DNA of 54,367 bases from positions 1 through 54,367 of IMG/VR virus record IMGVR_UViG_2531839448_000005. One strand, 5' to 3'. Below, piece by piece: positions 13,025 to 54,367 of this stretch. The translations under genes were made by a program, and so were the position numbers. Each line of letters starts with the position of its first letter. Positions within the stretch are counted from its first letter, which is position 1. This DNA comes from a virus. Taxonomy: Duplodnaviria > Heunggongvirae > Uroviricota > Caudoviricetes. The notes beneath the pieces were generated by a model that was not told where the DNA came from, did not search any database, and saw only the letters and a list, made by a program, of their open reading frames with translations.

Positions 13025-13032
13025 GAATCCTC

Positions 13033-16861: not shown

Positions 16862-16872
16862 AATGACCTCGG

Positions 16873-20423: not shown

Positions 20424-20856
20424 CATCGCCATACATCCAGTCGTTACGGTGTGCCGCCCGTTCTTCCTGCTCGCGATACATACCCGCCTTACGGTTCGCT
20501 TTCGTGGCTGGATCTTCCCGTGTTGTCTTACGGTTATGGCACGTCTGGCACAATGCCTGGTGGTTCCACTCAGGCCAGAAGAGAACATCACCGCCGCCAT
20601 TGATGGGAATGATGTGATCCACCACAAGAGCTGGCGTATAAATCCCCTTAGCCAGACAACGCACGCATAACGGATTTTTGCTCAGGTACAGGGCGCGGTA
20701 TTTGTCCCACTGTCGGGAATACCCGCGCGCGCGGCGGTGTCCCCGTCTGGCATCCTCTGCACGCCATGCAGCCCGCCTGTGATCTTCGCACTTGCCGGAC
20801 TTCACGCGCTTATTACAGCCCGGCTCAGTGCATCGCCTTAATGGTTGCCACGGCAT
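20416..20856 (-). CDS. HNH endonuclease
   Basis: paired CxxC motifs plus HNH-like core DHIIPINGGG...NHQALCQTCHNRK. Confidence 0.8.
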   Translation of the reverse strand: MPWQPLRRCTEPGCNKRVKSGKCEDHRRAAWRAEDARRGHRRARGYSRQWDKYRALYLSKNPLCVRCLAKGIYTPALVVDHIIPINGGGDVLFWPEWNHQALCQTCHNRKTTREDPATKANRKAGMYREQEERAAHRNDWMYGDDD

Positions 20857-21155
20857 CAGTACACCCCTACATCACGATAAACCGACCAGAGCGCAGAAAT
20901 AGCCATAGGCAGTTCAGACTGCTCCACAGGTGAAACCGCTTCCCTGTTCTCGTACAGGAAAGCGATGTACATCAGGCAACCAACACGTATTGCCGGGGTA
21001 AATTCCAGCCCGTCTTCAAAACGTTTCCCGATATGCTTCTGGCAGGCTTCCAGCGCCGCATCGGTATACATTTTCAGAAGTTCGCCCTCACCTGAGAAGT
21101 CATCAAGGCGAAGATGTGCCCTGACTTCATCAGGTGTAATTTTTTCTTCACTCAT
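20856..21155 (-). CDS. head-tail connector protein (gp6-like)
   Basis: start MSEEKITPDEV; about 100 aa; similar in outline to the resident connector. Confidence 0.55.
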   Translation of the reverse strand: MSEEKITPDEVRAHLRLDDFSGEGELLKMYTDAALEACQKHIGKRFEDGLEFTPAIRVGCLMYIAFLYENREAVSPVEQSELPMAISALWSVYRDVGVY

Positions 21156-22362
21156 CTTTTTCACCTTTAATTTCCACCGTCTGCTTCCATGCCTGGCTGA
21201 ACTCGTCACCACCTTCACGCGGCGGCATCCCCTCACGTTCGCGGGCTTCGTTCGGATTCATGATCCCGTTCTTAATCCCTTTCTCATACGTGGCGTAACG
21301 CTCGGTTGGAGTAGCGCGCAGTAAATCGGCTGAATCAAACTCAACCAGATAACGGGTACCAGGTATGGGAGAAGCCACCAGCAAAGCGGCCTTAATTTGC
21401 TGTTCGAAGTTCGCCAGCCATGGGCGCATTGTCATGGTCAGAAACGCGCGGCTTGCCTCACTGAAATTGCTGTAGGTGCTGTTGCTGTATTCCTGAAGAA
21501 AAATCGGCGACACGTTGAACATCCGGGCGATGTCTTCAATGGAGAAGCGACGGGAGGCCAGCCATTCTGCATCCTGGTTACTCATCCCCAGTTGCTTGTA
21601 ATCCATACCCCCTTCAAGGATTGGCGTTTTTCCGGCATTTTTCGCCCCCTTGTAGCGTTCCAGGGCGTCTAATGCCTGTTTACCTTTCACGCCGTCCAGC
21701 CATTCGCCTGACGTGATAATCCCTGCCGCCATCATGCCATCTTTCATAATGCTGGCTCCGTGACGCTGTTGAGCAAGGCCAAGCCCCAGCGCCTCACGGC
21801 AAATCGTGACAGGGGAGCGCCCCAGAAAGCCATCATCCGAGGCATAGCGGAGATGCAGAACTTCTTCCTGCAAATACGTGCGCACCGTTCCTGTATAGGG
21901 TTCGGTGATGGTATAGCGGTATTTGTGTGCGCCAGTGCGTTCCGGTACAACACACCCCGGCGCATAAGGATGAAGTGATTTTGGCTGACCGTCCCGCCCC
22001 CACTCAATAACCGCATAGGCGTTACCGTTCAGCAGGCAGTGACGCATCATTGTGCGTTTAAACTGGTAAGGTGTCTGGCACGAATTAGGCTGCTCATTCA
22101 GCAGAATATCGACCGGGTGACTGTCCAGCCATTCCCGCGCCTCCCTGCCCTTGTCATTGCGTACCAGATACAGATAACACGGCATCGTGGCCACCGCCTC
22201 AGCGATGACAGAAACCGCGTTCATCACAGCAGGCAATGATTCAGCCGTCCCGGCAGAAACATATTCTCCGGATCCGGTATTCGGTACGCCGGACAGCGCC
22301 AGAAAATCATCAATGGACAGGTTACGCAGATCGCTTTTTTTACGACTAAAAGGCCACCACAT
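21148..22362 (-). CDS. portal protein
   Basis: about 405 aa from MWWPFSRKK; pattern resembles the resident portal. Confidence 0.75.
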   Translation of the reverse strand: MWWPFSRKKSDLRNLSIDDFLALSGVPNTGSGEYVSAGTAESLPAVMNAVSVIAEAVATMPCYLYLVRNDKGREAREWLDSHPVDILLNEQPNSCQTPYQFKRTMMRHCLLNGNAYAVIEWGRDGQPKSLHPYAPGCVVPERTGAHKYRYTITEPYTGTVRTYLQEEVLHLRYASDDGFLGRSPVTICREALGLGLAQQRHGASIMKDGMMAAGIITSGEWLDGVKGKQALDALERYKGAKNAGKTPILEGGMDYKQLGMSNQDAEWLASRRFSIEDIARMFNVSPIFLQEYSNSTYSNFSEASRAFLTMTMRPWLANFEQQIKAALLVASPIPGTRYLVEFDSADLLRATPTERYATYEKGIKNGIMNPNEAREREGMPPREGGDEFSQAWKQTVEIKGEKDE

Positions 22363-22363
22363 A

Positions 22364-22924
22364 TCACAACCCCGCCAGTTCAGCCCAGCGATGACGATTA
22401 TTTCCTGTCGGGCGTAATTCAGGGTGCTGTGCAAACAACGAACGGTGGGCAATCTCCACGCCGGATTCGGGATAAGCAGGCATCGACGTTATCGTGATTT
22501 CACGGAGTTCTGCGGCGGTAACAGTGCGCAGATACGGTTTTTGCGCGATATTCCACTCTTCGCATAATGCGCGAAAGCCAAAGCTCATTCCTGTAATGTC
22601 GCCACGCTCCACCAGCGTAAGCACATCTTTTCCAAGCTGGGTATCAGGCGGTGTCAGTTCAAAACGTAGCCCGGTGTTGTCCTCAGTCAGTACCAGTGTT
22701 CCGGATTTGGTGCGCCCCAGCAGTCGGGTATAGTCATGCTCATACAGGCAGCGCACATCATTACCCGCCGCCAGATAGTCAGCAAAAGCCCCCGGCGTGA
22801 ACTGTTCGCGGAATTCGTCCCAGATAATTTCTGAAAGGCTGTTCCAGCGAACGGCATACCCCACCAGCTTTTTATTGCTGGCGGTCAGTTCAGATGTGCG
22901 GATTTCAAAATCGGTGTTTTTCAT
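22364..22924 (-). CDS. prohead protease (HK97 / peptidase U35-like)
   Basis: 186 aa; GYAVRW, YEHD and GMSFGF motifs. Confidence 0.7.
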   Translation of the reverse strand: MKNTDFEIRTSELTASNKKLVGYAVRWNSLSEIIWDEFREQFTPGAFADYLAAGNDVRCLYEHDYTRLLGRTKSGTLVLTEDNTGLRFELTPPDTQLGKDVLTLVERGDITGMSFGFRALCEEWNIAQKPYLRTVTAAELREITITSMPAYPESGVEIAHRSLFAQHPELRPTGNNRHRWAELAGL

Positions 22925-22978
22925 CGGTGTACTCCATAAAGCTGAAAAAGGAGGCCGCAGCCTCCTCCTTACTCATGA

Positions 22979-24148
22979 CTAGCCAGCTTTCATTTCCAGA
23001 ATTTTGATGGCGTTTGAATCCACCACACCACCGCCCAGATATTTATCCGTGTGGACCTTGTAGAATCCGGGTTCAGTAATGTTGTCCGGTCGGGTGCGAA
23101 TCCCTGTTACATGATCAACGATGAAATAACCACGACTGAAATCGCCAACCGCTAGCGGTGCTTTTCCTGCGCCGATGTCCGGCATGGACTCCAGGCAGAA
23201 AACAGGACGACCAAGCAACATATCCGGCGCACCTTCTTTAAGGCTGTCGCGCCAGATATAATCGCCATTCTCATTTTTCAGCTTCTGTAGTGTCCCTGCC
23301 GTGCCCGAGTTCATCACCCAGACGGCATTTTTGCGGTATTTCGCTTTCAGCTTGTAGAGAATGTCGATCAGTTCGTCCGCTGTAATGGCGGTTCCACTTG
23401 CCGCTACCACTTTTTCAATGGTGCCAAAAGCGCGGGTTTTGTCACTGGTCGCCGCACGGGTGTAAGCCATGAAGCCTTTCGGCTTGCCGTTACCGTCGCC
23501 ATTAACAAAATCATCCTCTTCGGTGCTGGCGAACGTGTCGGCAATTTCGGAGGATAACCAGCCCAGAATATCCACCTCTGAAAAATCCAGGATTTCCTGC
23601 GTGGTTTTCGGGTAGGCGTAGATCGGATTCAGCTTGATGGTTACACGTTCAATTTTCGGGGTGTTGGTTTCACTACGTGCGCTGCCTTCTGTGCCTCGTC
23701 CTACAGTTGCGCCGCCAGTGGAAACCAGTTTCTGAAACTCATTTGATTTTGCGGTCTTCACGGTCGCGATCACGCGCATAACACTGTCATCCTGTAGCTG
23801 GCGCATGACTTCGCGATCAAGCTCAGGAATTACGGTATATCCGCCATCCCTGCCGCTGTCAGTGCTGGTGGACAGTGATCGCACATCTCCGGTTACGATG
23901 TAGTTACGCAATTCATCAGATGATAATTTCTGGATGCCCGTTCCTGGCTTGCTGCGTTCTTCATCAGCCACAGACTCGAGGCGGTAAATTTCTGTGTCGA
24001 GGGAATCGGCTTTTGCACGCAGTTCATCAAACTGTTTGCCCTCGTCATCGTTCAGGCTGCGGTTTTCACTGTCGGCTTTTTCCAGCAGGGATCGCATCTG
24101 GTTTTTCAGGGCGGTTTTTTGCTGGCGGAGTTCGATTAATTTCTTCAT
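22979..24148 (-). CDS. major capsid protein, HK97 family
   Basis: 389 aa; coiled-coil N-terminus; GDGNGKPKGFMAY and DSNAIK motifs parallel the resident capsid protein. Confidence 0.85.
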   Translation of the reverse strand: MKKLIELRQQKTALKNQMRSLLEKADSENRSLNDDEGKQFDELRAKADSLDTEIYRLESVADEERSKPGTGIQKLSSDELRNYIVTGDVRSLSTSTDSGRDGGYTVIPELDREVMRQLQDDSVMRVIATVKTAKSNEFQKLVSTGGATVGRGTEGSARSETNTPKIERVTIKLNPIYAYPKTTQEILDFSEVDILGWLSSEIADTFASTEEDDFVNGDGNGKPKGFMAYTRAATSDKTRAFGTIEKVVAASGTAITADELIDILYKLKAKYRKNAVWVMNSGTAGTLQKLKNENGDYIWRDSLKEGAPDMLLGRPVFCLESMPDIGAGKAPLAVGDFSRGYFIVDHVTGIRTRPDNITEPGFYKVHTDKYLGGGVVDSNAIKILEMKAG

Positions 24149-24422
24149 GAAGGTTTTCTCGTATTGGTTAAGATTCAGGACGTGAAACCAACACGGAGGG
24201 AGCGCCGCCCGACACTCTCGGCATCTCGCAGATCAACCCGGCATCGCGCAGGGGGTCAGGCGGCATTGTGGCGGCTCACGTCTGAGTGCCACACGCCAAC
24301 ATATACATAAAAATCAGTATGTAAACATCAGCCAGAATCACCGAACAACCTGGAACAACCACGAACAAATAATTTACAAAACCTGAAAAAAAGACCTGGA
24401 GAAAATCCAGGCCTTTATCGCT

Positions 24423-24671
24423 TTATTGTTTCACTGGATCCCGCATTCTGCGTCTTATTTTCCACAGATATTCGATCATCGCTTCCACCTGCTCACGATT
24501 GGTTGCGAAAATTTCCCCGGTCAGTGAGCTGCGCAGAAAATCATGATGATCCACAACAAACAACGCATCGGAAGAAAGCAGACGGCGATATTTTTTTGCT
24601 GTCGTGGTTTCCAGATCATCAAAACCATGAAACTTTTTATGTTGCTGGACTTCTTCAAATGTCACTGGCAT
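24423..24671 (-). CDS. hypothetical protein
   Basis: 82 aa ORF. Confidence 0.35.
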   Translation of the reverse strand: MPVTFEEVQQHKKFHGFDDLETTTAKKYRRLLSSDALFVVDHHDFLRSSLTGEIFATNREQVEAMIEYLWKIRRRMRDPVKQ

Positions 24672-25204
24672 GTATCCCCCTTTGCCGCCCGGCGCTGGCG
24701 CTTGTGCTTCTCATTCAGCGCCATCAGCCGCGTTTCTGCCTCCTGCTGTTCCTGTGGTGTCACTTCCCCACATGGCTGGCCTTTCAGGTCGTATCGTACC
24801 CCACCAGCAACCAGGGCGCGGTAATAGCGCGGAGACTGCGCATAAGATGCCAGCGTCGCACGTAATGCCCCCGGCCCGAATGCCAGCCCCCTGACGGCGA
24901 GATCCTGCATCAGGTCGTCGAATATCCCCACCTTAAGCGGCTTCGGTGCTTCCCTGTTGAATAAGTCAGGCCACATCTCAGTGAGGCGGTTAACGCGCCT
25001 GCGGTTTTTGCGCTGGCGTTTGGTCATATGCCGCCACGGTGTCACCCCTGTGGGCTGCCCTTTGCGGCTCTGCTGTGCGTTCTGATTGCCGGGTATCACT
25101 TTATGCGCCGATGTGGTTTTATCCCGCTCTTGCGCCGCCTGCGTCGTTTTCTGCGGCGTGCCGTAAATGCCTTTCGGTTTTCGGTTAATGGTCAGCTTTG
25201 TCAT
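24662..25204 (-). CDS. ProQ/FinO-domain RNA-binding protein
   Basis: LKVGIFDDL...ALRATLASYAQSPRYYRALVAGGVRYDLKGQPCGEVT aligns by eye to the E. coli ProQ N-terminal domain as recalled. Confidence 0.6.
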   Translation of the reverse strand: MTKLTINRKPKGIYGTPQKTTQAAQERDKTTSAHKVIPGNQNAQQSRKGQPTGVTPWRHMTKRQRKNRRRVNRLTEMWPDLFNREAPKPLKVGIFDDLMQDLAVRGLAFGPGALRATLASYAQSPRYYRALVAGGVRYDLKGQPCGEVTPQEQQEAETRLMALNEKHKRQRRAAKGDTCQ

Positions 25205-25368
25205 GCCTTCCCCTGTAATTACTCTGTTCGCTGTTGTGAATTAAAACGGTATGTTATCCCCGTACAGGTCATCGTGCTGGCCTGTCTGTTGTTTTGCCCT
25301 GTTCAGTGCGTCAGTGGCCTGCCCCTGTTGGCCTTTTTTGCCGCCCGGTCGCGCCGTTCTCGCACTGA

Positions 25369-25665
25369 TTACGCTGTCTGCGATGACCTGCCAGCCCTGC
25401 CGCGTTTCGCCGTTCTGCCCTGTCCACTGCTTACCTGCATGTTACCCGCCACGCTCACCAGTTCGCCTTTGCGGTGTTTTGCCAGTGCGTCGGCCTGTCT
25501 GCCAAACGCCAGGACGGATAACCACATCGTCGCCGTTCCGTCATCTGCCTGGCTGCATGGCAGGGGAACCGCCATACTCGCCATCGCCATTTGTGTTCCC
25601 TTGCTGGTGGTCTTTAACTGCGGGTCAGCCACCAGCCGCCCGTAAGCCGCTATCTGTGCTGTCAT
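25369..25665 (-). CDS. SSB-like OB-fold protein (tentative)
   Basis: 98 aa; pattern GRLVADPQL...WLSVLAFGRQADAL...GELVSVAGNMQV resembles an SSB core. Confidence 0.35.
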   Translation of the reverse strand: MTAQIAAYGRLVADPQLKTTSKGTQMAMASMAVPLPCSQADDGTATMWLSVLAFGRQADALAKHRKGELVSVAGNMQVSSGQGRTAKRGRAGRSSQTA

Positions 25666-25728
25666 GCTGTCTGCTCTCCGGTTTTAACGTTGATGGTTAC
25701 GCTTGTTTACACCCTTACGGTGAAATTC

Positions 25729-25854
25729 TGCGGGTTATAATCGCACTTTTGCGGGTTATAACTGCCGTTTTGCGGGTTACGTGCGGGTTATTGATTTCCT
25801 TTTTATTCATACAGTTAATGCACTTATATACATGATAACCCGCATAACCCGCAA
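25729..25854. repeat. iteron cluster B: 4 direct plus 2 inverted copies of TGCGGGTTA(T) flanking an AT-rich spacer; candidate replication origin
   Basis: copies at 25729, 25751, 25771, 25782 (direct) and 25835, 25845 (inverted); immediately 3' of the primase gene. Confidence 0.6.
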
Positions 25855-25875
25855 CTTTTCACCTCACACAGGGGG

Positions 25876-27999
25876 TTAATCTTCTGCCTCAGGCTGGAAC
25901 ATCAGCACGTAAAAAACATGCTGCTTCCCCCCAATTTTGCCGAGCGCCTTTTTCTTGTAACGGCGATCGTTACCCGCTTCCAGCATTCCGGCAGCACTCA
26001 ACGCGCGGGCAAAGTGAGACGGATTAAATCCCTGTGCTATCTCACCCTCAAATACATGCGGGAACGTGTAAAAACGGAACTCGTCATCTTCGTTTCTGAT
26101 ACTCCCCTTTCTGTATCCGGCAAGTTCTTTAATCGATAAATCACGCTCGTCGGTATTGGGCCACGGAAGGTATCTGCTGAATCCGAACGACGCTAAAAAA
26201 GCTTCTGCCTGTTCAACCATCTGTTTAAATTCCCTGTTACCCGTGCCGAACTCCTTCACCCAGGCATTAAAATTATGCTGTATGGCATCGCGGCATTCCT
26301 GCTCATCCCAGCCAGTAACATGACCTGAAAGCACAAGCGCGGCCTCCAGTATGGCAAATCGCTCCCCCACACGGTGAACCTGTTCGCCGTAGCTCTCCGG
26401 TATCAGGTTGCGCCACCGCTCACGGCATGTCCTTACCGTGTCCTTTGCCTCCTGCTGGTGTTCTGCCAGCCATTTAACCCACTCACGACCCGCCGCCCCG
26501 TGATTTTCTGTCCAGGCATCCTTTAACGCGTCTGCGTGCGCCTTTCCGGTGCTGTATTCGTGAAATTGCGTGGCTTTTTCCATCGGAACGTTAAGCAGGC
26601 GGACAAGCTGCCCCGCTTTGACTTTTATCCCCTCCGTTTTGAGGAATGTCTCAACGTCCATTTCTCCGGTGCTGATTGCCACCGTGCGCCAGTGTTTGAT
26701 CTCCCTGTTGCCGCCGTCCTTCGCCCCCTGTAATTTCCCCGAACCGTTAAACAGCGTATAGGCTGACGTGGACACCTCCCGCGCGTTTCCGGCCTGGCCT
26801 ATTTCATCCAGGGGTAAAAGCCCGTCATTGTGTGCCTCTGCTTCGTTGGCGATACCTAACGCTGTGCCGTACCAGGTCAGCCGCTGCGCGTCCGGCTCTC
26901 CCCATAAACTTGATGCGATGTTCTGTGTGGTGGTTTTCCCTGCCGATGACTGTTCGAAAAGATGTACCCCGAAGCCGTCAGCGCCCACCAGCCCGATTAA
27001 TGGTGCGGATAACGATACCGCCACACCCAGCATCATGGACGGATTACCACCAGCCAGCCGCGCAACGGTATCGCGCCAGCCCTCCGCCGTTCCTGCCACG
27101 GAATAGCCATTAACAGCAGCCGTTTTTCCGGTAAACAGGACTGGCTTTTCGCAATCACCAATGACCGAACCGTCCGGCATGATGTACGCGCCAAAATGCC
27201 AGCCCGTTGTTGTGCTTAACTGCCATTCCTCATGGCTTCCGCTTAACTGCATCCAGTCAGCCAGGATAGCCCTGTATTTACCGTTGGTTGTTACGTTCAG
27301 TCCGTGGTCTTTCAGCAACCGCCAGCCGTCACGGTCGCCAATGCCACCGCACGGAACCGCCATTGTGATGACTTCATGGTTTGCTAATTTTTTCCAGCGC
27401 ATCACGCGGTAATGCTCTTTACCGATTGTCCCCGTTCCCAGTAGTTCAAGCGGGGAACATAACCACGTCTCAGGCCGGATAATTTCGCCTGACTGCTTAT
27501 CCACTTTTGGCGTTACCCAGAAAACACCATCGGCGCGACTTTCAACGCGGGGCTTTAATTCATCATCGCCCTGGATTTCTGTGATTTTTTTCTTTAAGGG
27601 CAACACCAGACTTTCCCCGCGCTCGTATTCGTCTTTGAGGCGAGGCAACTGGTCGGATAAATCCGCCGGGCTGATGTCAGTTATCCCCGCGTATTCGTAT
27701 ACGGTCTTCACGCCAGCCACAGCCAGCAACGTGACGATCTGTGTAAGGCTACGTTCAGTGATGTGCCCTGCGCGGTAAACACGCACACACTGACGGCTAT
27801 CATCAATAATTTGATAACCGGTAATATCTTTCAGGTGTTCATCTGACAGAACGACAGGCGGCACATTGTCGGCGGCAATATGCTTACCTGCCCATTCCTG
27901 CCACTCTTTCGCATGGCTCCACGCATCACTACCCGCAAAGATGATAACCTCCGTCATTTTGTCGGCTGGCTGGTGCTTTAAGTTTGGTGCGCGCTTCAT
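25876..27999 (-). CDS. primase / replication protein (P4 alpha-like, DUF927-type)
   Basis: 707 aa; central Walker-like GEPDAQ...SSAGKTT region; adjacent iterons. Confidence 0.6.
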   Translation of the reverse strand: MKRAPNLKHQPADKMTEVIIFAGSDAWSHAKEWQEWAGKHIAADNVPPVVLSDEHLKDITGYQIIDDSRQCVRVYRAGHITERSLTQIVTLLAVAGVKTVYEYAGITDISPADLSDQLPRLKDEYERGESLVLPLKKKITEIQGDDELKPRVESRADGVFWVTPKVDKQSGEIIRPETWLCSPLELLGTGTIGKEHYRVMRWKKLANHEVITMAVPCGGIGDRDGWRLLKDHGLNVTTNGKYRAILADWMQLSGSHEEWQLSTTTGWHFGAYIMPDGSVIGDCEKPVLFTGKTAAVNGYSVAGTAEGWRDTVARLAGGNPSMMLGVAVSLSAPLIGLVGADGFGVHLFEQSSAGKTTTQNIASSLWGEPDAQRLTWYGTALGIANEAEAHNDGLLPLDEIGQAGNAREVSTSAYTLFNGSGKLQGAKDGGNREIKHWRTVAISTGEMDVETFLKTEGIKVKAGQLVRLLNVPMEKATQFHEYSTGKAHADALKDAWTENHGAAGREWVKWLAEHQQEAKDTVRTCRERWRNLIPESYGEQVHRVGERFAILEAALVLSGHVTGWDEQECRDAIQHNFNAWVKEFGTGNREFKQMVEQAEAFLASFGFSRYLPWPNTDERDLSIKELAGYRKGSIRNEDDEFRFYTFPHVFEGEIAQGFNPSHFARALSAAGMLEAGNDRRYKKKALGKIGGKQHVFYVLMFQPEAED

Positions 28000-28310
28000 T
28001 TTGCCTTTCCCCGTTCACGAATAATTTCACGTACTGCCTTAATGCGTTCCATTCCTGTAACGCGCATGATTCTGTCGATGTCGCTTAATTCTGCTGGTGG
28101 TGCTTTACTTACCAAGGTGAACTCCCTGTCAAAGCGCATATGTGACGACACGCAGGGATGCGCATAACCTTCGCGGATATAGGTCACACGAAAATCATCG
28201 ACGGTTTTGATCGTTATCGTGCTGCCGTATTTATCCTGGAAAATATCGCCGGGGCGGATTTCAGGCCGAGCGGGGCCGCTGGCAGTAAAGCCAGAATTTT
28301 TCTTTTTCAT
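27996..28310 (-). CDS. hypothetical protein
   Basis: 104 aa ORF overlapping the primase start. Confidence 0.4.
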   Translation of the reverse strand: MKKKNSGFTASGPARPEIRPGDIFQDKYGSTITIKTVDDFRVTYIREGYAHPCVSSHMRFDREFTLVSKAPPAELSDIDRIMRVTGMERIKAVREIIRERGKAK

Positions 28311-28315
28311 GTTTT

Positions 28316-28564
28316 TTACTCCAGAGGCAGCTTTTTAGCGGCGAGCTCAATATCAGATGTCAGAGAAACCTGTGTATTTGCCAGGTCTAACAACAAAGAA
28401 ATAAGAATTTCTTCTCTGCTATCGGATTTATCGGTGCTAAGGCTGTTCATCCACATATTGACGACTTCCCTGATTTTTTTCGCAGAGTGCAGGGCTTCAA
28501 ATGCCAGGTCTTCAATATCATGTTTATTTCGCATAATCGCCCCCGCCATTTTCACAATCAGCAA
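28316..28564 (-). CDS. hypothetical protein
   Basis: 82 aa ORF. Confidence 0.3.
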   Translation of the reverse strand: MLIVKMAGAIMRNKHDIEDLAFEALHSAKKIREVVNMWMNSLSTDKSDSREEILISLLLDLANTQVSLTSDIELAAKKLPLE

Positions 28565-28769
28565 TCAGGATGGCTTTTGCCTCATTCAGCGCCATATCAG
28601 CACTAAATTGCATAACAGCCAGTGAGTGAGGAACGAAAGCCCCGGCATATTCTGTTTCGCTGGTGGCGTGCTTATGCGCCTTGTCTGCGATAACAGAAAT
28701 ATCAATCAGCGCGTGCATCAGCGTTTTGATGGCTTCGGCGGCTGCGTCCGGACGGGTGTTATTGCACAT
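28524..28769 (-). CDS. hypothetical protein
   Basis: 81 aa ORF. Confidence 0.3.
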   Translation of the reverse strand: MCNNTRPDAAAEAIKTLMHALIDISVIADKAHKHATSETEYAGAFVPHSLAVMQFSADMALNEAKAILIADCENGGGDYAK

Positions 28770-29073
28770 GGCGCACCTCCTGACGAATACGGGCAGCGAA
28801 TACCATCACGCAGCCAGCCGGGGATTGCTGGCGTGCTTCCTGTTCGCTAGTGGCCTCAATGGTAATCACACGCGGTTGTGCCGTGCTCAGGGCGATAAAA
28901 CGCCAGATGTATTTATTCAGGTTGTGCGAGTCCCGCCCTTGCGGGTGTGTGGTATGATTTAACATAGCTACCTCGATAATCTTGCTATCGTTGGTGGTTA
29001 GAAGCCCGGTTAGTGTTAGCGCACTGCCGGGTTTCGTCGTTTGTATTTCAATAAAACCATTGGTGTGTTTCAT
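28759..29073 (-). CDS. hypothetical protein, first gene of the island leftward operon
   Basis: manual call: ATG at 29071-29073 inside the operator motif, 105 codons; the 393 aa track ORF is a read-through artefact. Confidence 0.35.
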   Translation of the reverse strand: MKHTNGFIEIQTTKPGSALTLTGLLTTNDSKIIEVAMLNHTTHPQGRDSHNLNKYIWRFIALSTAQPRVITIEATSEQEARQQSPAGCVMVFAARIRQEVRHVQ

Positions 29074-29150
29074 GTTATTTTGGAGTGAAACACACGTCAA
29101 GCCTTTTTTGTATTTCTTTTTTGTGTATACTGAAACACACCAAATTTGAG
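29050..29150. promoter_or_regulatory. divergent promoter region with three copies of operator-like motif TGAAACACAC / GTGTGTTTCA
   Basis: copies near 29055-29068, 29083-29096 and 29138-29150 between divergent genes. Confidence 0.5.
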
Positions 29151-29161
29151 GAGTTTCAGTT

Positions 29162-29467
29162 ATGGCGACTACCAACAAAAACGCTAAATCACAATTGACC
29201 ACCGTCAGAGTCCCCCACGATGTTATGGAGGGCATGGAATCCGTAAAACTGGACGGCGAAAGCAACGCCGGATTCATAGTAACCGCCATGCGCGGTGAGA
29301 TCGCCCGCCGCCAGGCAGAAGGAAGCGGAGAAAATCCCCTGGTTTCTTCGCTCGATGCACTGGCGCAGGTGGAAAAAATTGGAGTCAAGGCTGCCGAGGA
29401 GATCGGGCAACTCGTCACCGTCGCGCGTGAAGAACTCCAGCGACGCAAGGTCAAAGAGCAGGAATAG
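29162..29467 (+). CDS. hypothetical protein, candidate island regulator
   Basis: 101 aa ORF divergent from the island operon, directly downstream of the operator triplet. Confidence 0.4.
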   Translation: MATTNKNAKSQLTTVRVPHDVMEGMESVKLDGESNAGFIVTAMRGEIARRQAEGSGENPLVSSLDALAQVEKIGVKAAEEIGQLVTVAREELQRRKVKEQE

Positions 29468-29524
29468 CCACTATCAGCGCCATAGTTTGAGGAACGCAGG
29501 CGCATTGCTTTACAGGACAGCACC

Positions 29525-29704
29525 ATGAGCGACACAGAATCAACCAAAACACCATCACCAACTCGTAAGAGACGACGCAAAAATATAGCGCATGAACATG
29601 AATCAGAAAGATTCGCACCTTGTTCGTTTGCTCTTGAGAAATTCCTTAAAGAGCACAGGAAAAAGCTCTCGTTGCAAACCTTGGAACGAACCAAATCTGA
29701 CTGA
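29525..29704 (+). CDS. small basic protein
   Basis: manual 59-codon ORF MSDTESTKTPSPTRKRRRKN; below the track length cutoff. Confidence 0.25.
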   Translation: MSDTESTKTPSPTRKRRRKNIAHEHESERFAPCSFALEKFLKEHRKKLSLQTLERTKSD

Positions 29705-29770
29705 TCACATTGCCCACCAGCCGCAAATGTGGCATTGTTGGTGATGCTTTTGTTTTCCCTTGTTCCCACT

Positions 29771-29800
29771 GGCGACCCTTTTGCGGTCGCCTTTGTTTTG
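29771..29800 (+). terminator. rho-independent terminator
   Basis: GGCGACC/GGTCGCC stem followed by TTTGTTTTG. Confidence 0.6.
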
Positions 29801-29892
29801 CCTGTTATCCGGCAATAGTGGCGCTTCGTCACCTGTCTGATATAATTCCACAGCTTATATTCATTTTTTGCGCAGTAGGTTAATTGTTCGCA

Positions 29893-29926
29893 AGGGCGCT
29901 CCGGCAACGGGGCGCTTTTTGTTTTT
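29893..29926 (+). terminator. rho-independent terminator
   Basis: GC-rich hairpin followed by TTTTTGTTTTT. Confidence 0.5.
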
Positions 29927-30084
29927 ACCCACCAGCACAATAAAAATCTTCATTTTCCATTTTTGTAAAATTTCATGCTTTCCGGACGACTGGTCATATG
30001 TCATTTTTTAGCAGAAGATTTTGCCTTGCTGGTGGGTAGCTTCCCGGTCAACACGATGTACCGTATAATCAACACCGCGTGTGG

Positions 30085-30663
30085 TTACTGAATACGCTCA
30101 CCAAAGTAAAACTCAGGCTGGTATTCACGTATCAGCCTTTTTTCTTCTTCCTCCAGCTCACGCTTTTTGCGCTTACATGCCTGTAGCTCCCTCCCCTTCT
30201 CACTGGCACTTATCTGGTATTGCTCTTTGCGGCGGGAAAAATCCTGTAATGCGCCCCACGGGATACCATAAGCCCCCGTTTTTCTGATACCCGGTATCAC
30301 ATTTCTGAATACCCAGTTACTGAAACGATGAGCAAATGTGCCAGGCGTCGTTGCTTTGCGGCTGCGGGCTATTAGTTTGTAGAAACCTGACTCGGAGATA
30401 ATGCTCATATTCTGATTTCCTCCGGGGGTGTAAGTTAAATTTACTCCCTTTTCGTCATCATCAAGCATCTGCAACGCCGTACGCGAATTGGTCAATTCCA
30501 GCGCAGCACAAACATCCTTTGCAACAAACCACGGATCGCCGTTTAGATACACCACACGAACATCCACGCCATCAAAGCGCAGAACGACCAGATCACGAAT
30601 ATCACAGAATTTTTTCACATGACGTGCGTCACCCTTGCCCGTCACGGCAATATTTTTATTCAT
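30085..30663 (-). CDS. Bro-N domain protein (antirepressor-like)
   Basis: N-terminal Bro-N-like pattern RVVYLNGDPWFVAKDVCAAL...ESGFYKLI...FSNWVFRNVIPGIRKTGAYG. Confidence 0.65.
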   Translation of the reverse strand: MNKNIAVTGKGDARHVKKFCDIRDLVVLRFDGVDVRVVYLNGDPWFVAKDVCAALELTNSRTALQMLDDDEKGVNLTYTPGGNQNMSIISESGFYKLIARSRKATTPGTFAHRFSNWVFRNVIPGIRKTGAYGIPWGALQDFSRRKEQYQISASEKGRELQACKRKKRELEEEEKRLIREYQPEFYFGERIQ

Positions 30664-30720
30664 TGCTTTTTACCTCACATACAAAAAACCCCGCATTGCG
30701 TGGTGCGGGGTTGTCGGTAA

Positions 30721-30999
30721 TTACTTATTGGCGTTTTTGTATGGGCTGTTTACTTCCTTTACTCCTGGCGGATGCATAACCCACCAGAGCACATCAGAGA
30801 GCAACCAGGAAACAGACACTTTCCCTAAATGAGCACGAGCAGGAAATGCTCCCTCCTGTTCAAGTACCCAACGTCTGCTTCTTGAAAGCCCGGTACGATT
30901 GGCACACTCATGTTCGCGTATACGGCGATCATACGGTTCGCCATGATCTTTCAGAATCTGAATGCGTTCTTCGGGTGTAGGATAAATAAATTTTTGCAT
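30721..30999 (-). CDS. AlpA-like small regulator (tentative)
   Basis: start MQKFIY; small basic protein adjacent to alpA. Confidence 0.4.
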   Translation of the reverse strand: MQKFIYPTPEERIQILKDHGEPYDRRIREHECANRTGLSRSRRWVLEQEGAFPARAHLGKVSVSWLLSDVLWWVMHPPGVKEVNSPYKNANK

Positions 31000-31062
31000 A
31001 AAAATATCACCTATAAAAAAACCCGCCAAAAGACGGGTTGATTATATCTCATTTAATTTAGC

Positions 31063-31296
31063 TCAGGGTTTCCATTCACCTTTTACCCATTCCAGCACCT
31101 CAGATAAGCGCCAGACTTTTGTTTGTGGGCCAATACATATTTTTCGTGGAAATTTTCCTTCCTTTTCAAGTAACGATCTGTGTCTCCTGCCAAGAGCGGT
31201 TAACCATGCACATTCATCCTCCTTAATCATCCTGTCGATTGTTTCATCATTTTCAAGTTCTTCACGCGTAACTATTTGAATCATTACTGTCACCAC
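31063..31296 (-). CDS. alpA: AlpA-family transcriptional regulator
   Basis: 77 aa ORF directly upstream of int; small basic winged-helix-like protein. Confidence 0.55.
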   Translation of the reverse strand: MVTVMIQIVTREELENDETIDRMIKEDECAWLTALGRRHRSLLEKEGKFPRKICIGPQTKVWRLSEVLEWVKGEWKP

Positions 31297-31329
31297 TAAT
31301 TTGCTTATTCAGATAGTCGTACCACCAGT

Positions 31330-32483
31330 TCATAGCTTCTTTTTTCTGTCCATATACTGGCTTCTGTTATAAACCCCGGCAACACCGCCTAATGTGTGCC
31401 CAAGCAACTGTTCAACCACATTATGTTCAAAACCATGATCACTTAGTTTTGTGGCAAACACTCTTCGCATATCATGCGCCGTCCATTTCTCCGAGTGTTT
31501 CATCCTTTTCCATGTCTTACCGATAGTTACGCTTGCCGTACACTGACGCATATCAAACCCAATCACATTTTCTTTGTTACCTGTTATTTTTTTAACGTAA
31601 CTAACCAGTTAAACATGCCATCAGGAATCGGTCTGATTATTTCCCTGCCATTTTTGCTATGATCAGCGGGAACGCGCCATAATTTCTTATCAAAATCCCA
31701 CTCTACCCAGGACGACAGTAATACTTCTGACAGTCGACAACCAAAAACTACCAGGAAACGTAAAATAATTCGGTTTTCATATGATAATTCGTGATTGTCA
31801 TAATCAGTATTAATACTTCGCCATAAATCTCTGATTTCATCATCTGTTAAAACCCTGCTTCTTCGCGCAGACTTTTTTCCCACATCACAGACCTCAAGAT
31901 CATCAATTTCATGACTAATCGCGTATTTTCTTACCCTACAAAATTTAAGCGCCTGTTTTGATATACGCAACAAAGCTCCGGCCTGTACAGGTGCTACTTT
32001 TTTTATTTTGTCAAAACACTTAATCCACATAGATATAGAGCAATCACTAAGTGGTACATGACCAATCACCGGATAAATATGTTTACCAAAGCACTGCCTG
32101 ATATGTTCTGCTCCCCTACGCTTATCCATTGCATAATTATCAAGCCAGTATTCAAGTGCCTCACGAACGGTAACAGGTTGCAAGGTGGCTTCCCGTTCAA
32201 TTTTTATCTGAATCCGTGGATCTCTGCCCTCCGCAAGCCAGGTTCGACACTGATCGCGCATCTCTCTCGCTGATTTGAGACTCAGATCAGGATATTTTCC
32301 AAGTGTCAGCCAGATGGGCGCGGTTCCCCTTCCCGCCAGTCTGTAAAAGAAAACAAAACTAACACATCCGTATTTACTGACCCGTACCGAAAGCCCGTTA
32401 CCATCAGCGATGGTTTCCTGCCTCTCACTCCTGCGCCCAAGCAGGGAACGAAGTTTTTTATCGCTCAGTTTGTTTAGCGCCAT
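31330..32483 (-). pseudogene. int: tyrosine integrase (P4-like), frame-broken at an A7 tract near 31580-31590
   Basis: 311 aa N-terminal ORF plus 78 aa C-terminal ORF carrying HxxR...Y catalytic region (HDMRRVFAT...GVYNRSQY); adding one A rejoins the frames. Confidence 0.8.
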
Positions 32484-32503
32484 GTGATTTATAACCCGTT
32501 TTT

Positions 32504-32524
32504 GCAATACACAGTGCAATACAC
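32504..32524. repeat. tandem GCAATACAC arm-type repeat (copy 2)
   Basis: GCAATACACAGTGCAATACAC just upstream of the int start. Confidence 0.5.
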
Positions 32525-32654
32525 AAATGATGAAAACAGCCAGAACCTTCCAGAAAAAACAAAAACGACGAACAAGAAAAAATCTTTTTCTTTCATTTGG
32601 TTACTAAAAAAATCAGGACAGGTCGCACTGTTGTTACGGCGTGATGTTACTTTC

Positions 32655-37419: not shown

Positions 37420-37494
<75 letters not shown>

Positions 37495-37497
37495 ATA

Positions 37498-37573
<76 letters not shown>

Positions 37574-37575
37574 AC

Positions 37576-37652
37576 TGGACCGCCACCGGGGACTCGAACC
37601 TCGCACACTCAACTTAAAGGGTTGACGCTCTTTCCTGATGAGCTAGTGGCGG
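37576..37652 (-). tRNA. tRNA-like, anticodon loop CCUUUAA (putative UUU/Lys, non-canonical C33)
   Basis: 77 nt; 7 bp acceptor stem, TTCGAGT T-loop, CCA end; one mismatch in the T stem. Confidence 0.45.
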
Positions 37653-37653
37653 C

Positions 37654-37729
37654 TGGTGGCCCTTGCTGGATTTGAACCAGCGACCTGGCGATTATGAGTC
37701 GCTCGCTCTCACCACTGAGCTAAAGGGCC
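37654..37729 (-). tRNA. tRNA-Ile2/Met (anticodon CAU), ileX/ileZ-like
   Basis: 76 nt cloverleaf, anticodon loop CUCAUAA, close to E. coli ileX as recalled. Confidence 0.8.
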
Positions 37730-48569: not shown

Positions 48570-49130
48570 TAGCTAACCAACGAAGCTAAGGTTGGTAATT
48601 AAGGAGTTCTCCACGGGTGAGGTGGAGTGCGTGCGCCGGACACGGGTGAGCATCCGGCACTGACAGTTTACTGAAAGGATATTTCCATGAAAAGTCAGAC
48701 CATAACGCGAAAGCGCACGGCGAGGTAGCTGGTTCATAGATAGCCTGTCGTTAAATTTTCGTCGGCCGTGCGCTTCCGGTTGTGGCACTCCGCGAAATGG
48801 CGCGGCGGTAAGTATGGCGGGGTTATTCCTTCCCCGTTGAGGACACCTGGTTGTCAGGTTGACCATACGCTTAAGTGACAACCCCGCTGCAACGCCCTCT
48901 GTTATCAATTTTCTGGTGACGTTTGGCGGTATCAGTTTTACTCCGTGACTGCTCTGCCGCCCTTTTTAAAGTGAATTTTGTGATGCGGTGAATGCGGCTA
49001 AGCGCACGCGGAACAGTTAAAACCAAAAACAGTGTTATGGGTGGATTCTCTGTATCCGGCGTTAATTGTTAACTGGTTAACGTCACCTGGAGGCACCAGG
49101 CACCGCATCACAAAACTCATTGTTGAGGGC
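48570..49130 (+). other. about 560 bp structured non-coding region (several hairpins, long-range inverted repeat)
   Basis: hairpins CCAACgaagctaagGTTGG and GCCGGAcacgggtgagcaTCCGGC; 9 bp GCGCACGGC/GCCGTGCGC pair; 15 bp inverted repeat TTTTGTGATGCGGTG / CACCGCATCACAAAA. Confidence 0.3.
48930..48966 (+). terminator. candidate terminator inside the non-coding region
   Basis: GGCGG...CCGCC stem followed by CTTTTT. Confidence 0.3.
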
Positions 49131-49135
49131 GCGAT

Positions 49136-49325
49136 AATGAAAACGTTATTACCAAACGTTAATACGTCTGAAGGTTGTTTTGAAATTGGTGTCACTATCA
49201 GTAATCCTGTATTTACTGAAGATGCCATTAACAAAAGAAAACACGAACGGGAGTTATTAAATAAAGTATGCATTGTTTCAATGCTGGCCCGTTTACGTCT
49301 GATGCCAAAAGGATGTGCACAATGA
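49136..49325 (+). CDS. hypothetical protein
   Basis: 62 aa ORF. Confidence 0.35.
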
Positions 49326-49513
49326 ATCCAGTATTTGCACTTATTCTGACGGTTTTTCTTGTTTCCGGAGAGCCAGTTGATATTGCAGTCAGTGTTCACA
49401 GAACAATGCAGGAATGTATGGCAGCAGCAACCGAACAGAAAATTCCAGGCAACTGTTATCCGGTCGATAAAGTTATTCACCAGGATAATAACGAAATCCC
49501 GGCAGGTCTTTAA
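49322..49513 (+). CDS. small secreted or membrane protein
   Basis: start MNPVFALILTVFLVSG, signal-like N-terminus. Confidence 0.35.
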   Translation: MNPVFALILTVFLVSGEPVDIAVSVHRTMQECMAAATEQKIPGNCYPVDKVIHQDNNEIPAGL

Positions 49514-49606
49514 AACAGCACCGTAATAAATATCCAGTTTCATTCTTATATGTCAGCAATGGCAGAGATTTGTTCACCCTTAAATCTGTGATGAGGTTTA
49601 CCAATA

Positions 49607-52048
49607 ATGAGCACTGATAAAGAAGAATTTGCACTATATTGCGAAGCAAAAAATGACAAAGTAAGAAAACGCCTAGGAATTAAAGGTGGTTTTTACTGGA
49701 CTACAGCAAAAAAATTATCTGTTGCAATCTCCCGCTGCATTACCGCAATGGATGACAACGATTATGATGAAGACGACTTTAAAAAACCCGTCCGCGTCAA
49801 TTTGCCCGTTGTTGACGACCTTCCGCCAGAAGGCGTGTTTGATACTGAATTCTGCAACCGCTATGAAAAAGGCGGGAAAGATGGCATCACAATGACATTT
49901 ATCGGCCCTTCCCCCTCTGTTCAGGACAAACCAGCCAGCACTGACAATACCAACATCAACGGCGAAGACATGGCTGAGATTGAGGAGAGCATGCTTCTGC
50001 CTGTCTCCGGTCAGGAACTGCCCATTCGTTGGCTTGCTCAACACGGCAGCGAAAAACCAGTAACGCACGTTTCACGCGACGAACTCCAGGCATTACACAT
50101 TGCACGGGCTGAAGAACTACCGGCTGTTACTGCCCTGGCTATTTCGCATAAAACCAGTCTGCTCGACTCGCTGGAGATTCGCGACCTCCACAAACTGGTT
50201 CGTGACACTGACAAAGTTTTCCCTAATCCTGGTAATTCAGACCTGGGACTAATAACTGCTTTTTTCGAAGCATACCTGGACGCTGACTACACTGATCGGG
50301 GTCTGCTGACAAAAGAGTGGATGAAAGGAAATCGTGTTTCACGCATCACCCGCACGGCTTCCGGTGCTAATGCTGGCGGTGGGAACAAAACCGATCGCAA
50401 TCCGAATTTAGTACACACCCTCGACACACTGGATGTGGAGATTGCAGCAGCCACACTTCCGATGGATTTTAATATTTATGAAATTCCGGGCAGCGTTTAT
50501 CGTCGCGCAAAAGAAGTAGTCCTGAACAAAGAAAGTCCGTTCAAAGAATGGTCCGCAGCACTTCGTGCAACCCCGGGTATTCTGGACTATTCCCGCGCCG
50601 CTATTTTTGCACTTATCCGAAGCGCACACCCTGAATTTTATCACTACCCGGGACGCCTTCAGGGGTATATCAACGCCTATTTGACGGAAACTGATCACGA
50701 GAACCCCAGCAAGGAAACTCTCACAGCTGCCCGGCATACGCCGGAAAAAGATATCCTGGAAGAAATTAACCGCGAGGTGGTTACTGAGCGTGAAACAGAA
50801 GAAGAAAAACCACAACCATCTGACGCAATGGCAGGTGAACAGGCAACAACTGAAACAATGGAACCGGATACAACTGAACATGGCCAAAACGCGCAGTCGC
50901 TGGATGCTCAGTCGCAGGTGAGTTCCGCTAACCAAGTAAAAGTCACCGCTGACGAAGTAAACAAAATTATGCAGGCAGCCAATATCAGCCAGCCTGACGC
51001 CGATAAGTTACTTGCTGTATCGCGTGGTGAATTTGTTGAGGGGATTAGCGACCCGAATGATCCGAAATGGATTAAGGGGATCCAGACCCGCGATTCTGTG
51101 AACCAGAACCAGCAAGAAACGGAACAGAACGACCAGAAAGCGGAACAAAACAGCCCAAATACGCAACAAAACGAGCCAGAAACGAAACAACCTGAACCAG
51201 TAGTGCAACAGGAACCGGAAAAGATCTGCACCGCCTGCGGTCAGAGCGGTGGCGGCAACTGCCCTGATTGTGGTGCGGTGATGGGTGACGCAACATACCA
51301 GGAAATATTCGATGGAGAGAATCAGCCTGAAGTTCAGGAAAATGATCCGGAGGAAATGGAAGGCACTGCGCATCAGCACAAGGAGAACCCTGGCGGCAAT
51401 CAGCATCACGCCAGCGATAATAAAACTGGCGAGGCGACAGATCCCTTAATTAAGGTGAATGGTCATCATAAGCTCACATCCACCAGCAGAGCGGGGATTC
51501 ATCTGATGATCGACCTTGAAACCATGGGAAAAAATCCCGATGCCCCGATTATCTCAATAGGCGCAATATTTTTCGATCCACAAACCGGAGATATGGGACC
51601 GGAATTTAGCAAGACCATCGATCTGGATACTGCTGGCGGAGTCATTGATCGTGACGTCATTAAATGGTGGCTAAAGCAATCACGTGAAGCGCAGTCTGCC
51701 ATTATGACCGATGAAATCCCGTTAGATGATGCACTACTGCAATTGCGGGAATTTATCGACGAAAACTCCGGTGAATTTTTTGTTCAGGTCTGGGGTAATG
51801 GGGCCAACTTCGACAACGTGATTTTACGCCGTTCATACGAACGACAGGGTATCCCCTGCCCGTGGCGCTACTGCAACGATCGCGATGTACGCACAATCGT
51901 TGAGCTGGGGAAAGCCATAGACTTCGATGCCAGAACTGCTATCCCATTCGAAGGTGAGCGCCATAATGCACTTGATGACGCTCGTTACCAGGCAAAATAC
52001 GTTTCAGCTATCTGGCAAAAACTGATCCCGAGTCAGGCTGATTTTTAA
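49607..52048 (+). CDS. RecE-like protein: exonuclease VIII N-terminal region fused to a DEDDh-type 3'-5' exonuclease domain
   Basis: N-terminal 600 aa align by eye to Rac RecE (MLLPVSGQELPIRWLAQHGSEKPVTHVSRD, CTACGQSGGGNCPDCGAVMGD); C-terminus has IDLETMG and HNALDDARYQ motifs. Confidence 0.6.
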   Translation: MSTDKEEFALYCEAKNDKVRKRLGIKGGFYWTTAKKLSVAISRCITAMDDNDYDEDDFKKPVRVNLPVVDDLPPEGVFDTEFCNRYEKGGKDGITMTFIGPSPSVQDKPASTDNTNINGEDMAEIEESMLLPVSGQELPIRWLAQHGSEKPVTHVSRDELQALHIARAEELPAVTALAISHKTSLLDSLEIRDLHKLVRDTDKVFPNPGNSDLGLITAFFEAYLDADYTDRGLLTKEWMKGNRVSRITRTASGANAGGGNKTDRNPNLVHTLDTLDVEIAAATLPMDFNIYEIPGSVYRRAKEVVLNKESPFKEWSAALRATPGILDYSRAAIFALIRSAHPEFYHYPGRLQGYINAYLTETDHENPSKETLTAARHTPEKDILEEINREVVTERETEEEKPQPSDAMAGEQATTETMEPDTTEHGQNAQSLDAQSQVSSANQVKVTADEVNKIMQAANISQPDADKLLAVSRGEFVEGISDPNDPKWIKGIQTRDSVNQNQQETEQNDQKAEQNSPNTQQNEPETKQPEPVVQQEPEKICTACGQSGGGNCPDCGAVMGDATYQEIFDGENQPEVQENDPEEMEGTAHQHKENPGGNQHHASDNKTGEATDPLIKVNGHHKLTSTSRAGIHLMIDLETMGKNPDAPIISIGAIFFDPQTGDMGPEFSKTIDLDTAGGVIDRDVIKWWLKQSREAQSAIMTDEIPLDDALLQLREFIDENSGEFFVQVWGNGANFDNVILRRSYERQGIPCPWRYCNDRDVRTIVELGKAIDFDARTAIPFEGERHNALDDARYQAKYVSAIWQKLIPSQADF

Positions 52049-52106
52049 TGTTCAACCCTAATTGCCGCTAACCGTATATAGTTAGCGGCGGTTATGAGAT
52101 ATAGCT

Positions 52107-52310
52107 ATGAGCAGCTTATTTTTAACCGAAGATGAATTGCTAATATTAACGGGCTGCAAATATGCAAGCCACCAGCGAAAATGGTTAATGGAAAACGGGC
52201 TTCCGTTCTATACCAATCGTAGTGGCAAACCGATTGTCAGCCGGGATCTATTTACCTGCAATAAAACTTTACCACCACGCGAGGTAGAGCCGAATTTTGG
52301 TGCGATCTGA
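52107..52310 (+). CDS. xis: excisionase-like protein
   Basis: 67 aa ORF immediately upstream of int. Confidence 0.5.
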   Translation: MSSLFLTEDELLILTGCKYASHQRKWLMENGLPFYTNRSGKPIVSRDLFTCNKTLPPREVEPNFGAI

Positions 52311-53334
52311 TGGGAAGACGAAGGAAAAATCCTGAACACGAAAAATTACCTCCAAATGTATACCCAAATAAATATAGTTATGTATGGAAACCAACATCCA
52401 GAGAATCTGTCACACTAACCGCCATCAAGGATGGTTTAGCTGCTTTATGGAAAAAGTATGAGGAAACTGTAAATAATCGCGATCGTGCAATGACATTCGG
52501 TCGCTTGTGGGAAAAATTCCTCGCCAGCGCCTATTACAGTGACCTTAGTCCAAGAACACAAAAAGATTATCTGCAACATCAAAAAAAGTTGCTTGCCGTA
52601 TTCGGTAAGGTACCAGCGGATTCCATAAAACCAGAACACATCCGTCGATACATGGACAAAAGAGGGGAGCAGAGTAAAACGCAAGCCAACCATGAAAAAA
52701 GCAGTATGTCCCGTGTTTACAGTTGGGGGTATGAGCGAGGGTACGTGAAGGCTAACCCATGTGCAGGTGTAAGTAAATTCAAGGCCAAAAACCGCGAACG
52801 ATATGTAACCGACAAAGAATACCAGGCAGTATTAAGCGTTGCACCTCTTCCTGTTTTTATCGCAATGGAAATTGCCTATCTGTGTGCAGCGAGGGTTTCC
52901 GATGTGTTATCGCTGAAATGGGAACAGATTGGAAACGACGGGATATTCATCCAGCAAGGGAAAACCGGAAAAAACAGATAAAAGCATGGAGTCCACGATT
53001 ACAGGCAGCGATCGAAAAAGCAAAACAGTTACCAAAATCTGCCTATGTGATCAGCAATCAATACGGCAACCGATATATGTACAAAGGCTTTAACGAAATG
53101 TGGGTAGATGCAAGAAATCGTGCTGGAAAAATTTCAGGTATTTTAACCGACTTCACCTTTCATGATCTGAAGGCGAAAGGAATTTCAGACTATGAAGGAA
53201 GCAGCCGGGATAAGCAACTTTTCTCTGGTCACAAAACCGAAGGGCAAGTGCTAATCTATGACAGGAAGGTTAAAGTTTCACCAACACTTGATGTCCCGTT
53301 ACCTGAAAATATTCCAAGAAAATATTCCAAGTAA
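52310..53334 (+). pseudogene. int: prophage tyrosine integrase, frame-broken near 52960-52980 at an A6 tract
   Basis: 223 aa ORF ends after ...QQGKTGK; 150 aa ORF continues the integrase in the -1 frame; one added A rejoins them; adjacent to tRNA-Ser. Confidence 0.8.
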
Positions 53335-53386
53335 TTCCAAGTGTGATTTTTGTCACTGACTTAATGATGTGTAAGTGATTGAATTT

Positions 53387-53476
53387 TGGCGGAGAGAGGG
53401 GGATTTGAACCCCCGGTGGAGTTGCCCCCACTCCGGTTTTCGAGACCGGTCCGTTCAGCCGCTCCGGCATCTCTCC
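53387..53476 (-). tRNA. serU: tRNA-Ser (anticodon CGA)
   Basis: 90 nt with long variable arm, anticodon loop CUCGAAA, CCA encoded. Confidence 0.85.
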
Positions 53477-53569
53477 GTTCAGATGGTTGCCATGATGCCA
53501 GGAAATTTGGCATTTTAACAGTCCCTGTCCGTGCAATTTTGTTCAAGTGACGAGTTTGCGAGCAAAACG

Positions 53570-54367
53570 ATGATTAAGTGGCCCTGGAAAGTACAAGAAT
53601 CAGCACATCAAACTGCCCTTCCCTGGCAGGAAGCACTATCGATCCCCCTTTTAACGGGTCTGACGGAACAGGAACAAAGCAAATTAGTCACTCTTGCCGA
53701 ACGTTTTTTACAGCAAAAGCGGCTTGTTCCTTTACAGGGCTTTGAACTGGATTCATTAAGAAGCTGCCGGATAGCACTTCTATTTTGCCTACCCGTTCTG
53801 GAGTTAGGACTGGAATGGCTGGATGGTTTTCATGAAGTCTTAATTTATCCTGCGCCATTTGTGGTCGATGATGAATGGGAAGACGATATCGGTCTGGTGC
53901 ATAACCAACGTATTGTTCAGTCAGGTCAGAGCTGGCAGCAAGGGCCTATCGTTTTGAACTGGTTGGATATACAAGATTCTTTTGATGCATCTGGTTTTAA
54001 CCTGATTATTCATGAAGTCGCTCATAAGCTGGACACCCGTAACGGCGATCGCGCCAGCGGAGTTCCCTTTATTTCGTTGCGTGAGGTTGCTGGCTGGGAA
54101 CACGATCTTCATGCTGCAATGAACAACATTCAGGAAGAAATCGAATTAGTTGGTGAGAATGCAGCGAGCATTGATGCTTATGCTGCCAGTGATCCTGCTG
54201 AATGTTTTGCCGTACTTTCTGAATATTTCTTTAGCGCCCCAGAACTTTTTGCTCCTCGTTTCCCTTCATTGTGGCAACGTTTCTGTCAATTTTATCAACA
54301 AGATCCTTTGCAGAGACTGCATCACGCTAATGATACAGACTCGTTTTCGGCGACGAATGTTCATTAA
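53570..54367 (+). CDS. mtfA: MtfA (Mlc titration factor A)
   Basis: [21 protein letters not shown]...HEVAHKLD zinc-peptidase motif; matches E. coli MtfA as recalled. Confidence 0.9.

Follow-up and report, generated by a model that had tools for sequence, protein, structure and literature searches.

The integrase gene of a prophage inserted in the tRNA gene serU is deposited in two reading frames, and the question raised by this locus is whether the adenine whose absence breaks the frame is missing from the bacterium or only from its sequence. The window analysed here is the whole 54,367-nucleotide stretch of the Caudoviricetes record IMGVR_UViG_2531839448_000005. The frame break is a deterministic reading-frame observation in which chance is not at issue, and what has to be explained is the number of bases deposited.

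The locus holds the int gene of a lambdoid prophage that has integrated in serU; the original prediction had named it a prophage integrase next to serU (Table 1). K-12 serU lies in a matching gene context (yodB/serU/mtfA/asnT), and when the window is aligned with the empty K-12 site the homologous stretch starts precisely at the 3' end of the tRNA, two paired base differences inside the tRNA distinguishing the serU of the window from that of K-12. Phages that integrate into tRNA genes usually supply the 3' part of the tRNA, and the point at which homology starts, taken together with the two paired differences, indicates that the 3' part of serU was supplied by the phage. The int-side end of the prophage therefore shows both marks of serU-site integration, namely an integrase gene adjoining the tRNA 3' end, with 52 bp from its stop (53334) to the 3' end of serU (53387), and a phage-derived 3' part of the tRNA. 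Upstream, the stop of the DUF4224 gene and the start of the integrase gene overlap as ATGA. Judged from sequence, the DUF4224 protein probably acts as the excisionase, or directionality factor, of the int cassette; in phage mEp390 the equivalent gene, next to a homologous int, is annotated as an excisionase.

Table 1 Features at the integrase end of the serU prophage, in window coordinates.
Feature	Position	Strand	Basis or remark
DUF4224 protein, 67 aa	52107..52310	+	ORF; Pfam PF13986, E=1.9e-15
Integrase ORF1, 223 aa	52310..52981	+	Ends ...GKTGKNR (stop); ORF list and lambda Int structure alignment
A6 run, one base short	52969..52974	+	Direct reading; A7 in intact alleles
Integrase 3' part, Q223 to K341 and stop	52975..53334	+	-1 frame relative to ORF1
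Tandem 13-mer GAAAATATTCCAA, two copies, 3' end of int	53305..53330	+	Protein comparison
serU, tRNA-Ser(CGA), prophage attachment site	53387..53476	-	ARAGORN; alignment with the empty K-12 site
mtfA, chromosomal flank past the prophage	53570..54367	+	Identical sequence so annotated in CV839-06 and others

The A run within the integrase gene is exactly six bases long (GG AAAAAA C). ORF1 ends in ...IFIQQGKTGKNR, followed by TAA at 52979-52981, and the frame one base back of ORF1 reads ...ENRKKQIKAWSPRLQ..., with the stretch ...KKQIKAWSPRLQ..., up to the stop at 53332-53334. Insertion of one A generates a single 341-aa ORF across the junction (...QQGKTGKKQIKAWSPRLQ...), and the protein repaired in this way is 100% identical to an integrase found in 9,698 index blocks of a public collection. 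The normal gene is a continuous ORF of 341 codons with an A7 run at codons 220-223; with A6, the reading frame is lost after K221, three residues past the beta-hairpin lysine. ORF1 keeps the arm-binding N-terminus, the core-binding domain and the first part of the catalytic domain, with Arg-I (R195) and the hairpin lysine (K218), and H285, K288 at the Arg-II position, H308 and the nucleophile Y317 fall out of frame. As deposited, the gene has no single uninterrupted frame that holds all of its catalytic residues; after addition of one A, it has. The original prediction, that the gene is split at an A run one base short and that seven A would restore it, describes the sequence exactly, and its reconstruction is supported both by the A7 present at this position in every near-identical genome and by alignment to intact integrases, homologs down to 58% identity reading GKTG-x-KQIK across the junction.

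The repaired protein belongs to the lambda Int family of tyrosine recombinases and is of the same type as the integrase of Salmonella phage ST64B. It matches PF00589 at E=1.7e-11 (44.7 bits against a cutoff of 27.1) as well as PF22022 and PF14659, the domains concerned being Phage_integrase, Phage_int_M and a SAM-like N-terminal domain, and its residues 1-313 align with the lambda Int structure 1Z1B (E=1.2e-12). The three-part architecture is common to both proteins (lambda Int: PDB 1Z1B, 1Z1G, 5J0N, 1P7D, 1AE9), and the structure alignment pairs R195 with lambda R212, K218 with K235, H285 with H308 and H308 with H333. The pairing of Y317 with lambda Y342 is made by motif alone (LIYDR versus SQYRDDR), because the printed alignment goes no further than residue 313. 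The arrangement is also lambda-like in that int lies at the prophage end beside the attachment site and is overlapped by a small upstream gene. The sequence similarity is nevertheless distant (E about 1e-12), and the attachment site here is the tRNA gene serU, whereas lambda attB lies between gal and bio. A further difference is found at the Arg-II position, where lambda has R311 and the present protein has Lys, K288, within FHDLK (residues 284-288, window 53162-53173). Since the motif FHD[LI]K, with Lys at this position, occurs in 128 of 128 full-length homologs, the lysine reads as a family trait and not as a defect of the present copy. The ST64B integrase (sb28) and its relatives from Klebsiella, Citrobacter and Stenotrophomonas phages share 59-61% identity with the repaired protein over 96-97% of its length, with identical junction and catalytic motifs, and their genes are uninterrupted, unlike the deposited one. 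The integration site of ST64B is, we assume, likewise serU.

Over the 1,454 bases around the gene, the window is otherwise identical to dozens of complete genomes, the sole difference being their A7. Genomes with A7 at this site include E. coli 042, strain 165, CV839-06, ETEC4085, 14EC029, ETEC1747 and UMNF18. PGAP nonetheless tags the A7 allele as "frameshifted" in complete genomes. We considered these tags as a possible second lesion and rejected this, as they trace to the PGAP reference, a 345-aa variant (UMNF18, WP_000533616) with a single copy of the 13-mer GAAAATATTCCAA. Two copies of the 13-mer give the protein end ...ENIPRKYSK and a length of 341 aa, and this ...YSK end is common to E. 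albertii, Salmonella, Siccibacter and others. Because the 341-aa C-terminus is the conserved form, the pseudogene tags on the A7 integrase are probably spurious. The 341-aa protein is also encoded, unchanged, in the records ON470583 and ON470580. We do not use them as proof that the A7 form excises, as both are "partial genome" prophage predictions whose span takes in mtfA, asnT and host flanks, and they are thus silent on activity.

The origin of the deposited sequence can be identified. Positions 21584-42483 of the window equal AFEB01000037.1 (GCA_000225245.2), a contig of the 2011 draft assembly of E. coli TX1999, at 100% identity and with no gaps, and a gpJ fragment private to the window corresponds to the E. 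coli TX1999 protein EGX23285.1, which was seen on no other contig. No complete genome matches at 100% because TX1999 is not in the complete-genome collection. Drafts of this period and sequencing centre were, we presume, pyrosequenced.

Comparison with four nearly identical complete genomes (CV839-06, ETEC4085, 14EC029 and ETEC1747) over 32655-54367 (21.7 kb) yields as private differences of the window four single-A deletions, all in A runs (36806, 37126, 40383 and 52968), and one SNP. The first three of these sites are intergenic, with A6/A7, A7/A8 and A5/A6, respectively, in the window and the complete genomes; the intergenic spacer at 40383 is one base shorter in one other assembly too. Within the 15-kb element inserted at 17617-32654, a putative phage satellite, five more A/T runs are one base short (17658, 17775, 17961, 31339 and 31586), and at four of the five the longer run is present in all four complete genomes checked. 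The suspicion that the pattern recurs elsewhere in the window is thus borne out by eight other A/T runs one base short. Altogether, nine runs are short and none is long among about 116 A/T runs of at least six bases, when the window is set against near-identical complete genomes; with denominators counted in the comparator genomes, the shortfall rises from 5% of six-mers (4/82) to 11% of seven-mers (3/28) and 40% of eight-mers (2/5).

Two further private differences lie in region 1-17616: a single-T deletion at 628, about 30 nt into a tail-fibre gene, and a GC-rich scramble at 3462-3471 that splits gpJ into pieces of 451 and 670 aa, the 451-aa piece being known only from TX1999. The comparators have private homopolymer differences of their own, one or two each in CV839-06, ETEC4085 and ETEC1747 (such as a T6 at 41648 in CV839-06 and an A9 at 42271 in ETEC4085), which makes homopolymer comparisons with any single genome unreliable in either direction.

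These differences run in one direction, scale with run length and leave few substitutions, single-base deletions outnumbering SNPs, and they therefore point to homopolymer under-calling and not to divergence. We infer that the A6 site in the integrase gene belongs to this error pattern. In such a scheme, base-calling would have shortened long A/T runs throughout this region of the draft, and the A7 of int would have been read as A6, with loss of the frame after K221. That the missing A is an under-call in the TX1999 draft (AFEB01000037.1), and is not missing from the bacterium, is the reading that we consider probable; it is favoured by the contrast between a seven-mer shortfall of about 8-11% in this assembly and a background of about 0.15% for A6, a rough calculation in which the latter figure comes from long-contig assemblies. 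Other observations stand against it. The identical 223-aa product, encoded by A6 DNA, occurs in independent assemblies, EPECa12 among them, and on two DNA alleles of int, and the T7 at 31586 is also present on 15 contigs from other projects, so that not every short run need be an error.

The main competitor of the under-call is a genuine slipped-strand mutation from A7 to A6 in the TX1999 lineage, which would make the integrase a pseudogene. The exact 223-aa product is found in 43 index blocks, compared with 9,698 blocks of the intact protein, and on no fewer than 24 contigs drawn from NCBI, ENA and Logan, whose flanking backgrounds differ (96-100% identity). One of these, EPECa12 (AKNH01000039), has A6 and is 100% identical to 49099-54367 of the window (5.3 kb), and relative to CV839-06 its A6 is the sole indel in 13.9 kb. 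A second DNA allele of int, which differs synonymously, carries A6 as well (CYGC01, PQSG01 and FBVC01). Given independent assemblies and two DNA alleles, genuine A7-to-A6 alleles probably exist in nature at low frequency. The position of the break, with catalytic residues downstream of it, and the disrupted integrases documented for prophage decay in E. coli O157 Sakai (Sp3, Sp11 and Sp12; PMC2669165) would likewise suit a real mutation.

The same public collection also tells against it. Blocks that hold only contigs under 5 kb make up 33 of the 43 for the 223-aa product and 1,880 of the 9,698 (19%) for the intact protein, an odds ratio of 13.7 (P=9e-16); this excess in fragmented assemblies, together with the size of the 9,698-block denominator, weakens the public occurrences as proof of a real A6. 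We had also considered a neighbouring protein as a marker for strain-specific contigs, and rejected it as too common (10,387 blocks). Among about 1,100 complete RefSeq E. coli genomes with the integrase, probed with both DNA alleles, none has A6. This zero is compatible with the A6 frequency of about 0.15% in blocks that include contigs of at least 50 kb, from which about 1.7 cases would be expected in 1,131 complete genomes. Within the near-identical 21.7 kb of the window, the private changes, four deletions of one base, all in the same direction, and a single SNP, do not look like divergence. In mutation-accumulation data, even mismatch-repair mutators give several substitutions per indel, a spectrum that contrasts with the excess of indels seen here. 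Taken together, we regard a real mutation in the TX1999 lineage as the less likely reading, though one of substantial probability.

Were A6 real, the 223-aa product would be without both histidines, the lysine at the Arg-II position and the tyrosine nucleophile, and is predicted to be unable to cut DNA; with cleavage lost, the prophage could not use its own integrase to excise. Such a loss would be ordinary prophage decay, in a prophage already crippled by the 15-kb insertion in terL, and the same kind of event as in Sakai Sp3, Sp11 and Sp12, where int is lost in resident lambdoid prophages with other lesions. Unlike the Sakai cases, the lesion here is a single homopolymer base in a draft that shortens homopolymers, and its reality is doubtful.

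A separate possibility is that the A6 allele is leaky, a -1 ribosomal slip or the insertion of an A by RNA polymerase yielding full-length integrase at a low level. In the phase of ORF1 the allele reads GGA AAA AAC AGA TAA, which places a slippery heptamer, A_AAA_AAC (52969-52975), in the correct phase, as confirmed from the coordinates, and is followed by a rare AGA codon and the stop. An AGGGA stretch lies 8 nt upstream, and a -1 ribosomal slip would produce full-length integrase with K222N. The heptamer A_AAA_AAC is listed as a proven -1 frameshift motif in a cluster of insertion sequences in which no stimulator has been established, and in E. coli heptamers without a stimulator reach roughly 2-10x a background of about 0.05% (PMC4066793). 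The yield expected for the A6 allele is well below 1%, and the RNA downstream of the run shows no more structure than shuffled sequence does (z of the minimum free energy, -0.9). The cluster with this motif is presumably IS1, whose insA-insB' site (A6C) shares with the A6 allele the heptamer, its phase and a nearby stop in the 0 frame. In IS1, however, the two-frame layout is conserved and functional, whereas in the integrase the single frame is conserved and the heptamer occurs only in the rare A6 form (43 against 9,698 blocks). The homologs are single-frame and no fold is found downstream of the run, and nothing suggests selection for recoding. The A6 allele would therefore show, at most, adventitious leakiness well below 1%, a matter that becomes moot if A6 is an artefact, and we consider low-level production of integrase by this route very improbable. 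A broader version, in which the A7 run is a recurrent slippage hotspot and real, leaky A6 forms serve as a reversible dimmer of prophage excision, is in our judgement highly speculative and hardly to be expected.

That the integrase naturally works as two separately made polypeptides, for which the presence of two ORFs speaks and nothing further, can be dismissed for practical purposes, since the break falls inside a beta-hairpin of the catalytic domain, the nearest upstream start in the frame of ORF2 (GTG 52882) would add about 30 out-of-frame residues, gene callers at other A6 loci find just a 78-aa remnant (window 53098-53334), and every one of the 128 full-length homologs is a single chain.

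Returning to the under-call, its consequence would be a lesson in data quality. A 2011 draft that under-counts long A/T runs contains "frameshifted" genes that need confirmation at the level of reads before they are called pseudogenes, and the genes concerned here are the present integrase, the integrase of the putative satellite, gpJ and the tail-fibre gene. Neither a base-calling artefact nor routine pseudogenising slippage is new biology, and the observation carries little biological weight whichever reading holds, as integrase loss is a well-documented step in prophage decay.

The 15-kb element at 17617-32654 deserves a short description of its own. It is inserted within the large-terminase gene terL of the resident prophage, is flanked by a repeat of roughly 14 bp, TTGGTAA(G/A)AA(T/A)ATT, and occurs in the same terL-insertion arrangement in 32 complete genomes. 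It encodes an integrase, AlpA, Bro-N, a DUF927 primase, SSB and ProQ, as well as a major capsid protein, prohead protease, portal, connector, HNH, TerS and TerL; from this gene content it looks like a capsid-forming phage satellite. Its integrase gene (31330-32483, minus strand) is cut into pieces by T6 at 31339 and T7 at 31586, where four complete genomes have T7 and T8, respectively, and the 299-aa fragment that results from the change at 31586 is the one found on the 15 contigs from other projects. Lastly, the prophage carries a cluster of four tRNA genes on the minus strand at 37420-37729, comprising Gly-TCC, Thr-TGT, Lys-TTT and a tRNA with anticodon CAT that ARAGORN assigns to Met and PGAP to Ile.
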